A stretch of DNA of 52,842 bases from an uncultured Gammaproteobacteria bacterium. Its GTDB lineage: Bacteria > Patescibacteriota > Microgenomatia > Daviesbacterales > UBA10151. This document shows positions 1 through 46,376 of this stretch, one piece after another. Position 1 is the stretch's first letter, and the number at the start of each line of letters is the position of its first letter. The stretch covers positions 1 to 52,842 of the forward strand of contig CAYRCR010000005.1 in assembly GCA_964422835.1 (NCBI GenBank). The letters run 5' to 3'. The notes beneath the pieces are model-generated. The model was not told the DNA's origin. It did no database searches and saw only the letters and a program-made list of their open reading frames with translations. A program made the translations under genes and the position numbers.

Positions 1-22
1 ACAAAAATTGTAACTATTTTTG

Positions 23-94
23 TGGTCCGGCTGGGATTCGAACCCAGAACCAATAGCTTAAAAGGCTACTGCTCTACCGTTGAGCTACCGGGCC
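23..94 (-). tRNA. tRNA-Lys (anticodon UUU)
   Basis: Reverse complement GGCCCGGTAGCTCAACGGTAGAGCAGTAGCC-TTTTAA-GCTATTGGTTCTGGGTTCGAATCCCAGCCGGACCA folds as a cloverleaf; anticodon loop CTTTTAA. Confidence 0.96.
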
Positions 95-145: not shown

Positions 146-174
146 TTGACACGGAGTAGGTACTATATTATGCT
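146..174 (+). promoter_or_regulatory. sigma70-type promoter of a candidate small RNA
   Basis: TTGACA (146-151), 17 bp spacer, TATGCT (169-174); predicted start about 181, at the base of the first hairpin. Confidence 0.75.
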
Positions 175-180
175 TAAGCA

Positions 181-265
181 AGCTCTGCACCGTAAGGTGT
201 AGGGTGAGAGGTACATTAGCGATAATGTATTTCGGGAAAGGCTCCAGCAATGGAGTCTTTTTTTT
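181..265 (+). ncRNA. candidate ~85-nt small RNA with three GNRA-capped hairpins, the last an intrinsic terminator
   Basis: gctctgcacc-GTAA-ggtgtagggt; gaggtacatta-GCGA-taatgtatttc; aaaggctcca-GCAA-tggagtcttt followed by a T run; G-U pairs favour the + strand. Confidence 0.65.
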
Positions 266-312: not shown

Positions 313-1425
313 ATGAAAATCCCCAGGATTTTAAAGCTAAGTAAGAAAAAGGTTGTAATTTTGGCAATCTTGGTTGTTGCCACTTTTTTAGGTTTTAATA
401 TATTTGGAAGAAAAGCGGAAATTCCCCTACAATTTACTCAAGTCAAGAGGCAAGATATAAAATCTACCATTTCGGCTTCAGGAACTCTGACAGGTAAAGA
501 CAGCGCCAGTTTAAAATTTAAATCATCAGGTAAACTTGCTTTCGTTAATGTTAAGGTAGGTGATCAAGTTTATATGGGACAAATCCTGGCAGGTCTTGAT
601 ACCCAGGATTTAGAAATTACCCTACAACAGGCCAGGAATACTTTTGTTGCCAAAGACGCTGCTGCCAAAAGAGTGGAGGATGATTTAAAAGACCACAATG
701 ATGATGAGACATTCCTGCAAAAAGAAACAAGGACGGCCGCTCAAGTAGCCCGCGATAACGCTTTTGATTCCGTGAAAGCCGCAGAAAAAAACATCCAGGA
801 TATGTTTATAGTGTCTCCTATAAGCGGGACAGTTACGCAAGCCAACTTTATCTCAGGCCAAATAGCAGGGGATAATGTTATACAGGTAGTGAATTCTTCT
901 GACATATATTTTGACAGCGAGGTAGATGAGGCTGATATTGCTAAGTTACAAATTGGGCAAAAAGCCGAAGTAATACTGGACGCATACCCGGATAAAACAT
1001 TAAATGGCACCTTGGATCAAATAAAACCTCAAGTAAATACTACCTCAACCGGGGTCACTGTAATTGCGGCAAGAATAAAACTTGATGATCCTAAAATAAT
1101 CTTTGTTGATGGTTTGTCGGGGCAAGCTTCTATTATTACGGGGCAGTCAAAAAATGTTTTAACCCTACCACAAGAATCAGTAAGAGAGGATGGCTCGGTT
1201 GTAGTTTCAGAAGGAGAGACCCTAAAACCCAAGAAAGTTATAACCGGTATAACATCAGATATTGACATAGAAATTAAAGAGGGACTTTCTGATGGTGAAA
1301 AGGTACTGCTTAACCCCCCTTCTTCCGGGGCTTTCTTAAACCAGAGCAGAAATAGTAATCCTTTGACAAGAATTTTACGCTCGATCCGAATAAACCCGGG
1401 GGGAAGAGCAAATGGCCCTCGTTAA
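313..1425 (+). CDS. MacA/HlyD-family efflux periplasmic adaptor subunit
   Basis: N-terminal TM, lipoyl-like halves (SGKLAFVNVKVGDQV; SPISGTV), VDEADIAKLQIGQ motif; start at ATG 313 just after TATAAT. Confidence 0.88.
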   Translation: MKIPRILKLSKKKVVILAILVVATFLGFNIFGRKAEIPLQFTQVKRQDIKSTISASGTLTGKDSASLKFKSSGKLAFVNVKVGDQVYMGQILAGLDTQDLEITLQQARNTFVAKDAAAKRVEDDLKDHNDDETFLQKETRTAAQVARDNAFDSVKAAEKNIQDMFIVSPISGTVTQANFISGQIAGDNVIQVVNSSDIYFDSEVDEADIAKLQIGQKAEVILDAYPDKTLNGTLDQIKPQVNTTSTGVTVIAARIKLDDPKIIFVDGLSGQASIITGQSKNVLTLPQESVREDGSVVVSEGETLKPKKVITGITSDIDIEIKEGLSDGEKVLLNPPSSGAFLNQSRNSNPLTRILRSIRINPGGRANGPR

Positions 1426-2080: not shown

Positions 2081-3236
2081 TTTTTAATCTGGCTCTAACT
2101 GCTATTCTTGCCAATAAATTAAGGGCTTTTTTGACAATGTTGGGTATCGTGATAGGCGTGACGTCTGTAATACTTTTAATAGCGCTGGTATCAGGACTCC
2201 AAACTTATATTACAAACCAAATTTGATGTTTGTAATGCCCGGTAGAATGGGGGGAGCGCGCTCACCTGGAGGCGTACAGGCCAACCGTTTAGTTTATTCA
2301 GACACTGTCAATTTAAGGACAAAACTTGGGAGTGAGGCTGAAGTTTCCGCATCCATTCAAAGAAATGCCACATTGAAATTTGGCAATAAAAGAGATAAGG
2401 ATGTTTCTATTTTTGGCGTGGAAGCCAATTATCCGGAAATTATATCCATAGATTTGACTTCGGGCAGATTTTTTAAACAATCCGAACAGGAAGCAAGTAG
2501 AAAAGTAGCAGTAATAGGTCCGACTGTCGTTGTAAACCTTTTTGGAACGGGACAAGCCCTTGGTAAACCGATTGACATTGCCGGAACAAAATACACTGTT
2601 ATCGGAATAACAGAAAAGAAGGGTTCTGTTTTTGGCATGGACCAGGATAACTCGGTTTACGTACCGTTCCAAACTGCCCAGAGGCAATTTGGTATTGACC
2701 GCCTGAATACTATTTATATATCGGCAAAATTAGCCGAGAATGTGAAATTAGTCCAGGATAAATCTACGGCAATATTGAAAAAAAGATTATCAGAAGATGA
2801 ATTCACCATCCAAACACAAGAGCAAACACTTTCTACAATTTCCCAGATTACGGGGGTTTTAACGGCCGCGTTGGGAGGAATTGCCGCAATTTCGTTGCTT
2901 GTTGGAGGAATTGGTATTATGAATATCATGTTGGTATCGGTTACGGAAAGGACCAGGGAGATAGGGCTTCGTAAGGCAGTGGGAGCAAAGCCAAAAGATA
3001 TAAGAAACCAATTCCTGGTTGAGGCTATTGTACTTTCTGGTTTGGGAGGAATCGCGGGAATTATTTTAGGGATTACACTCTCATTTATTATCGGCAGGTT
3101 TTTTACAACGACTATTCCCTGGTGGTCAATACTTCTGTCTTTCGGATTTTCAACTGCCGTAGGTGTAATTTTTGGTGTGGCCCCAGCCATACGCGCTTCG
3201 CGCCTTAACCCTATTGAGGCGTTGAGATCCGAGTGA
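2077..3236 (+). pseudogene. MacB/FtsX-family ABC permease, frameshifted near 2222
   Basis: ATG 2077 gives [28 protein letters not shown]...TNQI then TGA at 2224; the protein continues in another frame from 2223 (LMFVMPG...GGIGIMNIMLVSVTERTREIGLRKAVGA...PIEALR). Confidence 0.85.
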
Positions 3237-40229: not shown

Positions 40230-40586
40230 ATGACAAAGTTATTCGTTGGAGGGCTGCCATACAGCCTGACTTCTGATGAGCTTCGCGATATCTTCTCTAA
40301 GGTAGGTGCAGTACTTTCTGCCACCGTTATTACTGACAAGTTTTCCGGACAAAGCAAAGGTTTTGGATTCGTGGAGATGGAAAAGGATGAAGAAGGGCAA
40401 AAAGCCATTCAGGATTTGAACGAAACTGAAGTACAAGGAAGAAAAATCTTTGTTTCTGTTGCCAGACCCCGTGAGGAAAGGCCTCAAGATGGAGGTTTCG
40501 GAGGTGGAAGAGGTACAGGGGGAAGAGATTTTAACCGTGGAGGGGGATTTGGTGGAGGAAGAGATAGAGGTGGAAGAGGAAGATAA
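40230..40586 (+). CDS. RRM RNA-binding protein with Gly/Arg-rich tail
   Basis: RNP2 KLFVGGL, RNP1 KGFGFVEM, RGG tail. Confidence 0.95.
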   Translation: MTKLFVGGLPYSLTSDELRDIFSKVGAVLSATVITDKFSGQSKGFGFVEMEKDEEGQKAIQDLNETEVQGRKIFVSVARPREERPQDGGFGGGRGTGGRDFNRGGGFGGGRDRGGRGR

Positions 40587-40606
40587 TTTTAAATTGTCTT
40601 TCGAAG

Positions 40607-40637
40607 AAAAACAGCTCCAGCAATGGGGCTGTTTTTT
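40607..40637 (+). terminator. intrinsic terminator
   Basis: aaaaacagctcca-GCAA-tggggctgtttttt; apex gctccagcaatgg identical to the terminator at 241-253. Confidence 0.85.
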
Positions 40638-40653
40638 GTTGTATAATACAGAC

Positions 40654-46261: not shown

Positions 46262-46283
46262 ATATAAGTGGTATTGTACCACT

Positions 46284-46340
46284 AAAAAAGCCCCTTGCGG
46301 GGCTTTCTTAGAGAACTCATCAACCTTACGGTCAATAAGT
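46284..46340 (-). ncRNA. candidate ~57-nt small RNA: GUAA hairpin plus GCAA terminator
   Basis: Minus strand acttattgacc-GTAA-ggttgatgagt, tctctaag, aaagcccc-GCAA-ggggctttttt. Confidence 0.62.
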
Positions 46341-46346
46341 GCTTGA

Positions 46347-46376
46347 AGAATACCATATCTTCTATACCCTTGTCAA
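46347..46376 (-). promoter_or_regulatory. sigma70-type promoter of the second small RNA
   Basis: TTGACA (46376-46371), 18 bp, TATTCT with TG extension; predicted start at hairpin base 46340. Confidence 0.7.

Follow-up and report, generated by a model that had tools for sequence, protein, structure and literature searches.

Between positions 146 and 265 of contig CAYRCR010000005.1 (GenBank assembly GCA_964422835.1), deposited as an uncultured Gammaproteobacteria bacterium and placed by GTDB in the Patescibacteriota (Microgenomatia; Daviesbacterales; UBA10151), lies what is very probably the gene for a small, highly structured RNA of three hairpins (3-hp). The window analysed here is the entire contig of 52,842 nucleotides (nt), or 52.8 kb, from a 983-kb genome in 39 contigs that is 99.67% complete. 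Almost nothing is known about the regulatory RNAs of candidate-phyla-radiation (CPR) bacteria, whose genomes of about 1 Mb leave scant idle DNA. The gene described here is compact and belongs to a group of ultra-small groundwater bacteria, the Microgenomates, at least four lineages of which carry relatives of it.

Every element that a preliminary description of the contig had assigned to this locus is present, namely a TTGACA-17-TATGCT promoter, three hairpins with GNRA loops and a terminator with eight uridines. On the plus strand, the −35 box TTGACA (146-151) and the −10 box TATGCT (169-174), both seen in the sequence and returned by a promoter scan, are separated by a 17-nt spacer. The pair has 10 of 12 consensus matches, as expected of a sigma-70 promoter whose activity is predicted, and TTGACA-N16-18-TATNCT occurs eight times genome-wide. 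By itself the scan does not rise above chance (4 sites per 1 kb versus 2.0 ± 1.5 in shuffles), which counts against this observation. Transcription is predicted to start at about A181, some 7 nt past the −10 box and one base ahead of the first paired base, in agreement with the earlier placement of the start at the foot of the first hairpin.

The predicted RNA of about 85 nt (181-265, plus strand) was delimited by its fold, its homologues and its absence from Rfam. Its first hairpin, H1 (182-205), has 10 base pairs (bp), three of them G-U, and a GUAA loop closed by CC/GG pairs, giving a CC-GUAA-GG tip. H2 (208-233) has 11 bp, two of them G-U, and a GCGA loop within a tip that reads UUAGCGAUAA in the window. 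H3 (234-263) is an extended 13-bp stem with a GCAA loop and forms the intrinsic terminator: its core stem GGCUCCA/UGGAGUC is followed by U8 at 258-265, and this U-run pairs back to GGGAAAG. Such a G+C-rich stem-loop with a direct U-run, which is kept in the homologues, predicts termination. In the 85-nt RNA the tips of H2 and H3 read UAGCGAUA and CAGCAAUG, respectively. A simple terminator scan does not list H3, a point against the assignment, and we think that the scan may miss it since the stem extends into the T-run.

The minimum free energy (MFE) structure of 181-268, calculated with ViennaRNA, consists of exactly these three hairpins at −42.6 kcal/mol. Shuffled sequences average −19.2 ± 2.9 kcal/mol (z = −8.0), with none of 200 as stable. 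The centroid is identical to the MFE structure and no competing fold is visible. Nine G-U pairs identify the plus strand as the structured one because they would become A-C mismatches on the opposite strand. The arrangement is also rare within the genome: a census of perfect hairpins with 4-nt loops and stems of at least 7 bp lists 2,991, of which 123 have a GNRA cap, and no more than 16 of the GNRA-capped ones reach at least 10 bp. Three of these are found here, two at 46282-46340 on the minus strand and one at 40606-40637 on the plus strand, and the window locus is the single run of three adjacent GNRA hairpins in the census. Mapping of four DNA sequencing runs to positions 1-1500 left 101-200 uncovered and gave no variant at the locus.

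Homologues and covariation

A BLAST search of positions 140-270 against the genome and 60 relatives returned only matches of at most 30 nt, all to the terminator. The family thus escaped BLAST and was recovered by a covariance model built from the window sequence alone (R1), which, when run on 100 relatives, found six full-length matches in other genera (59-67 bits) together with shorter forms. A refined model of seven sequences (R2), applied with stricter Infernal filters so that weak members may be missed, matched 16 of the 96 genomes of the family, including that of the window. The same model had matches in 11 of 151 genomes sampled evenly across the class, 8 of these genomes being among the 143 outside the family (32-106 bits). 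Across all GTDB species, a pattern of two hairpin tips was found at 45 places, about the chance number by our estimate, of which 22 are true members (46-110 bits). The titles of these 22 records name Daviesbacteria, Levybacteria, Collierbacteria, Shapirobacteria, Microgenomates or Patescibacteria; three were labelled Gammaproteobacteria by their depositors and one merely 'bacterium'. One Collierbacteria record (L140) contains two tandem copies of the RNA, at 132-224 and 264-351, the upstream of which has a differing H2 tip.

These homologues provide the covariation that had been proposed as a check on the structure. Among 25 aligned matches, four of them weak members, pairing holds in 94.9% of cells and both sides have changed in 28 of 34 pairs, figures to be read with the knowledge that the alignments were fitted to the model structure and lean towards it, and that many rows are close kin. 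The support extends over all three helices, with 10 of 10 pairs changed on both sides in H1 (97.9% of cells paired), 9 of 11 in H2 and 9 of 13 in H3 (model helices 3 and 4). None of 500 shuffles reaches any of five covariation measures, and sliding the pairing partners gives 42-59% paired. Similar figures were obtained from the core of seven sequences and from the pattern-selected set, in which the tips are invariant by construction.

The promoter is retained along with the helices. TTGAC[AC] lies 21-25 nt ahead of the model start at 19 of 21 loci, and exactly 23 nt ahead at 14, the two exceptions being one TTTACA and one copy without H1. A TAnAAT-like box follows 17-18 nt after the −35 box. 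With this fixed distance, transcription is predicted to begin where the pairing of H1 begins. As for the terminator, the 3′ U-run pairs with GGGAAAG or GGGAUAAG, G-C/G-U exchanges included. The best-conserved letters are the hairpin tips (UAGCRAUA in H2 and CAGCAAUG in H3) and the H1/H2 junction (UAGAGG-like), and the UAGCRAUA tip is retained in distant members. On stems of at least 5 bp, the genome has 4 instances of the first tip and 5 of the second. Mimicry of a ribosomal RNA (rRNA) hairpin was considered and set aside; tips on stems of at least 10 bp are found only in the RNA itself (two) and in a terminator at 40618, the other six instances having shorter stems, and the rRNA of this genome is only partly assembled. 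Given the promoter, the fold and the covarying homologues, we put the probability that the locus is a real, independent, structured RNA gene at roughly 0.85.

The distribution of the gene is uneven. Near-identical copies (104-110 bits) are found in genomes assigned to different genera and families. A block of an SPFH/Band-7 gene, a gene for a 198-aa protein and the RNA has 86-93% DNA identity among four genomes (L032, L033, L034 and L049) that belong to different genera and once to another family, and their SPFH proteins are 94-98% identical. This shared block suggests either recent transfer or a loose taxonomy. Two copies end exactly inside a hairpin: that of L049 (1501-1595), beside a Fic gene, is without the 3′ half of H3, and that of L035 (63-146) has lost H1 and the promoter.

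A two-hairpin relative ahead of tRNA-His

The preliminary description had pointed to a copy of the RNA at 46284-46340. This is a real relative on the minus strand with a promoter of its own; it proves to be a two-hairpin form (2-hp) that belongs to a much commoner, tRNA-His-linked sub-family. It extends over 46277-46345 and matches R1 at 30.4 bits (E 7e-6) with H2 treated as a deletion. Its promoter (46347-46376) consists of TTGACA at 46376-46371, an 18-nt spacer and TGgTATTCT ending at 46347. The first hairpin, H1′ (46340-46315), has 11 bp and the same CC-GUAA-GG tip, and is followed by the linker UUCUC and a GCAA terminator (46311-46282) with U6. Directly downstream, and still on the minus strand, lie an extended −10 box, TGGTACAAT (46281-46273), and then tRNA-His (46260-46184). 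The genome has a single occurrence of the linker motif, that of the 2-hp locus, and tRNA-His alone among the 40 tRNA genes has such a unit upstream. The tRNA keeps its own extended −10 box, as most of the 40 genes do; a box of this type, TGnTAnnnT, precedes 19 of them by no more than about 26 nt, with tandem tRNA genes sharing one, and a −35 box is not evident.

A covariance model of the two-hairpin form (R3) matched 56 of the 96 family genomes, more than half, with two or three matches in some, and, beyond the family, gave weak matches in just 4 of 143 genomes. An alignment of 32 matches has 95.1% of cells paired and changes on both sides in 20 of 24 pairs. TTGAC[AC] precedes the model start by 23-25 nt at 16 of 29 two-hairpin loci, and a co-directional tRNA gene lies within 150 nt at 17 of the 29 (His 13, Arg-Lys 3, Lys-UUU 1). 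At four more loci tRNA-His is 0.5-1.2 kb downstream, in one case with an HNH gene between. Several two-hairpin relatives carry an extra upstream GNRA hairpin, and relatives as a whole present one, two or three GYAA/GCAA hairpins ahead of the same type of terminator, a modularity that repeated binding modules would be expected to show. From its sequence, the 3-hp RNA looks like the two-hairpin form into which a segment pairing with the UCUC linker may have been inserted.

Two further connections were explored and rejected. In a boxA/boxB antitermination scheme, the 2-hp linker was likened to the boxA of Gram-positive bacteria; another block, absent from the RNA, stands in the rRNA leaders of three relatives, and the 5′ end of the 16S gene is unassembled in this genome. 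The leaders in question (L108, L109 and L110) share CACAUUAACAACCG(R)AAAAGUUUUU followed by a terminator-like hairpin, and this block reads like a boxA-type antitermination element of the family. Elsewhere in the window, at 40230-40641 on the plus strand, a gene encodes an RRM protein whose tail is rich in RGG; the terminator of this gene, a 14-bp stem with a GCAA loop, has the tip GCUCCAGCAAUGGGGC, nearly that of H3. A link between this gene and the RNA was discarded because the terminators of eight RRM genes in five other genomes are unlike the H3 of those genomes.

Neighbouring genes and known RNA families

Upstream of the RNA gene, and divergent from it, is tRNA-Lys(UUU) (22-94, minus strand; ARAGORN and Rfam). 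Downstream, on the same strand as the RNA, a TATAAT box (298-303) that is recognised by sequence and is not part of the RNA precedes a macA-like gene for an HlyD adaptor (313-1425, plus strand; Pfam HlyD_D23, 3e-21), which opens a MacAB-type ABC efflux operon continuing with ABC_tran and then MacB_PCD+FtsX genes. The open frame of macA reaches back to ATG250, within the terminator hairpin, and the conserved start is ATG313 (GTG in the locus L026). With the TATAAT box merely 10 nt before ATG313, the macA mRNA may be leaderless or nearly so.

A MacA-anchored search of metagenome contigs gave five loci, of which three have an identical intergenic region and one has no upstream DNA. The fifth, L026, encodes a MacA that is 61% identical and keeps the approximately 40 nt before the start (a block from about 272, with TAGAAT and GTG), with a coding region in place of the RNA. 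Conversely, the homologous RNA loci have unrelated neighbours, which include SPFH with the 198-aa gene, Na/H exchanger, TerC/DUF475, UPF0182, DedA, MarR, APH, BipA, GT2, Fic, Bro-N, KilA-N, Cro/C1-HTH and rve_3 integrase-core (transposase-type) genes, among others, and no efflux component is found among 54 flanking open reading frames (ORFs) scanned at the other loci. By our own ORF calls, the next downstream gene is convergent at 10 of 21 loci and co-directional at 10, with none before the contig end at the remaining one, and a tRNA gene of any kind lies within 1.5 kb at 5 of the 21 three-hairpin loci. One locus (L044) also has a SAM-I riboswitch (70 bits; 2591-2695, minus strand) about 1 kb from its RNA copy. 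Because the neighbours are unrelated while promoter, helices and terminator are kept across genera, and the macA block is independent, the locus is most probably a stand-alone RNA gene and not the macAB leader, as had been proposed at the outset.

The RNA does not appear to be coding. It had been described as having no ORF, and this needs qualification, since a 10-codon frame (ATG170-TAG200) overlaps H1; the frame begins upstream of the predicted RNA start and is unconserved. The sole recurrent frame in the homologues is closed by the UAA of the GUAA loops of H1, and there is thus no conserved reading frame. A leader peptide was likewise rejected: the shared CCGUAAGG is read in one frame from ATG170 and in another by a 24-codon ORF of the 2-hp copy.

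The statement that the RNA resembles no signal recognition particle (SRP) RNA, 6S RNA, transfer-messenger RNA or riboswitch holds against Rfam 15, for which the proposed search was carried out. At gathering scores, the whole window contains only five tRNAs. At E≤10, positions 90-330 give Phe_leader (RF01859; 22.8 bits, E 0.086, gathering score 55), aligned to the terminator alone, and a 9.8-bit lncRNA match. No family lies over the RNA at twenty homologous loci. In the literature on small or structured RNAs of CPR bacteria, Daviesbacteria and Patescibacteria, supplements not included, we found no description of it, and the family is apparently undescribed so far and absent from Rfam.

An SRP RNA deserves particular attention. 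Bacterial SRP RNAs have symmetric and asymmetric internal loops next to their GNRA loop. None is present here, as all three hairpins are uninterrupted helices. The bacterial small SRP RNA model RF00169 is unmatched across the window at its gathering score, on 90-330 and in the whole genome at E≤10, and in all of the 96 family genomes, whereas controls were detected in 12-13 of 14. The protein partners are also missing: neither the Ffh M domain (PF02978) nor the SRP54 GTPase (PF00448) is matched in the genome, where the SecY control was found, and SRP-GTPase motifs occur in no ORF of at least 150 aa, so that neither Ffh nor FtsY is detectable. SRP54 GTPase is above the cut-off in none of 41 relatives and in 4 of 121 genomes of the phylum, the top match being a spurious P-loop match in a Mur ligase and the remaining three covering only the same P-loop stretch of the profile. 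With no RF00169 match and no Ffh or FtsY in the genome, the RNA cannot be an SRP RNA. The loss of SRP from these genomes is probably already known, given that one report describes two SRP subunits as absent from many CPR bacteria (PMC8080830).

As for 6S RNA, which folds as a long helix with a central bubble, the RNA forms three separate hairpins and RF00013 has no match, in a search that is weak because the 6S models detect just 5 of 14 controls.

Possible roles of the RNA and likeness to known systems

The anatomy of the RNA points to a protein partner. From its own sigma-70 promoter, an RNA of about 85 nt would be transcribed from the foot of H1, and with both ends buried in helices and about 2 nt unpaired it would be expected to be long-lived and abundant. 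The approximately 2 unpaired nt leave no room for a base-pairing seed, and the conserved tips and buried ends make the RNA most likely a trans ligand of a protein that reads GNRA-capped helices. With no linker between them, H2 and H3 could stack as a rod of about 24 bp, and the RNA could act as a multivalent decoy or as the scaffold of a small ribonucleoprotein (RNP). That the RNA is such a protein ligand, as a stable decoy or a scaffold, is a tentative model to which we give slightly less than even odds. The protein-sequestering decoy suggested in the preliminary description fits the anatomy and keeps the standing of a proposal.

Several observations weigh against this protein-ligand model. 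The 3-hp RNA is spread patchily (16 of 96 family genomes), as a dispensable or mobile gene might be but a housekeeping RNP ordinarily would not. The window H2 tip UUAGCGAUAA departs from the family consensus CUAGCAAUAG, so that a strictly sequence-specific reader would have to co-evolve. The tRNA linkage of the two-hairpin form, together with a conserved YGUGG past its terminator, hints at a role at the level of DNA or transcription. Finally, the lean of the alignments towards the model structure and the kinship of their rows, mentioned above, temper the pair counts. A wider scheme would view both forms as ultra-stable, all-helical mini-RNAs of modular GYAA/GCAA hairpins, in which the 3-hp RNA is a free-standing, horizontally spreading sponge or scaffold and the two-hairpin form, as its parent, sits between a consensus promoter and the tRNA-His promoter in most Daviesbacteria and couples the same protein, or RNA polymerase itself, to tRNA transcription. 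We consider this scheme improbable on present evidence; if true, CPR bacteria would gain their first defined regulatory RNAs. The gene is small enough for synthesis, and would offer a handle on RNA-based regulation or on an RNA-binding protein in organisms not yet grown alone.

Other explanations have to be weighed against a protein ligand, and the strongest of these treats the locus as a cis-acting transcription module, in which promoter and terminator matter as DNA or as an event (an insulator, a polymerase hand-on, an attenuator or an antitermination leader) and the hairpin RNA is a by-product or a protein-binding leader. The position of the two-hairpin form between a TTGACA promoter and the extended −10 box of a tRNA gene, with a tRNA gene within 150 nt at 17 of 29 loci, speaks for such a module, as does the conserved sequence past the U-run in two-hairpin relatives. 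The window TATAAT box comes 33 nt after the terminator, and L029 and a group of six loci have promoter-like boxes at that place. However, only 5 of 21 three-hairpin loci have a tRNA gene within 1.5 kb, 10 of 21 downstream genes are convergent, and tRNA-His is the only one of the 40 tRNA genes with a unit of this kind. H1, H2, the compensatory changes and the conserved tips would be superfluous for a mere terminator or insulator, the fold contains no alternative antiterminator, and the boxA-like block in the rRNA leaders of three relatives is a different one that the RNA lacks. We therefore judge a cis module to be unlikely, though it is the best of the alternatives. Far less can be said for a 5′ leader or attenuator of macAB, acting through a ribosome-stalling peptide (MLKQALHRKV) or a ligand-sensing tandem-hairpin riboswitch. 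The RNA is on the macA strand, 48 nt before the start of the gene, with its terminator between a strong promoter and the operon, its H1 is overlapped by the 10-codon frame, and there is the weak Phe_leader match. This match is to the terminator only and is far under its gathering score, the frame is unconserved and precedes the predicted start, and no alternative fold exists, the centroid being the MFE structure. In addition, the downstream genes are variable, with efflux genes at no other locus, and the macA promoter block is kept without the RNA in L026. The leader is thus largely refuted and we regard it as highly improbable.

The two remaining possibilities are both doubtful, and to about the same degree, each having less in its favor than a cis module. 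The RNA could be an antisense small RNA (sRNA) that pairs with its targets through an opened helix, short junctions or loops. Bacterial riboregulators are usually promoter-to-terminator sRNAs with three stem-loops, the form seen here, and two-hairpin relatives keep the single-stranded UUCUC linker and the adjacent stem strands in sequence. Against this, about 2 nt are unpaired in the 3-hp RNA, its UCUC motif is locked into H2, and GNRA tetraloops make poor kissing loops. Complements elsewhere in the genome number 12 12-mers (rough chance about 9) and 42 11-mers, both near the level roughly estimated for chance, and of these none is extended and none stands out. Alternatively, the locus could be the RNA gene of a mobile island, serving an integrative element as regulator or immunity RNA, or providing a preferred site for recombination or attachment. 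This would explain the patchy spread, and is in line with the near-identical copies across genera and families, the SPFH-RNA block shared by four genomes, the Bro-N, KilA-N, Fic, Cro/C1-HTH and rve_3 neighbours and the two hairpin-truncated copies. Yet none of 18 pattern matches on viral contigs is a member, most copies have no adjacent tyrosine- or serine-recombinase integrase, the window flanks are a tRNA-Lys gene and an efflux operon, and mobility would account for the spread of the RNA and not for its job. An attachment site in particular was rejected, as the 10 kb between the truncated L049 copy and the end of the G122 contig contain no further partial copy.

The RNA shares features with several known systems while differing from each of them. 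Similar to the 4.5S SRP RNA of bacteria, it is a small, presumably stable RNA with its own promoter and GNRA-capped helices near a tRNA gene, as 4.5S RNA often is; it differs in leaving RF00169 unmatched, in having no internal loops at its tetraloops and in occurring in a genome without an Ffh M domain or SRP-type GTPase. The Guanidine-II riboswitch (mini-ykkC) resembles it as small tandem hairpins before a transporter operon, at least in the window. However, mini-ykkC has ACGR loops, in contrast to the GUAA, GCGA and GCAA loops found here, and is known only as a transporter leader, whereas the homologues of the RNA are unlinked to transporters and no Guanidine-II match was obtained at E≤10. 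ColE1 RNA I and DsrA are likewise RNAs of about 85-110 nt with their own promoter and a series of three stem-loops that ends in the terminator, but they pair with their targets via 6-7-nt loops or single strands, unlike an RNA that is almost fully paired and ends its stems in tetraloops.

Two systems in which protein recognizes short hairpins offer a view of how the RNA might work. In the boxB of lambda and P22, a short helix with a GNRA-type cap is the whole recognition element for the N peptide, and it lies just past a promoter and ahead of terminators. BoxB differs in having a pentaloop and in being part of a nut site with boxA that acts in cis on the polymerase, while our RNA has no boxA-like element and at half of its loci nothing co-directional lies downstream. 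CsrB, RsmY and RsmZ carry GGA loops for CsrA/RsmA, and GGA occurs in none of the GUAA, GCGA and GCAA loops of the RNA, so that the likeness is one of possible working and not of membership. In that working, CsrB, RsmY and RsmZ are stand-alone promoter-to-terminator RNAs whose repeated hairpin modules vary in number, and the RNA described here may share with them the binding of several copies of one protein in place of base pairing.

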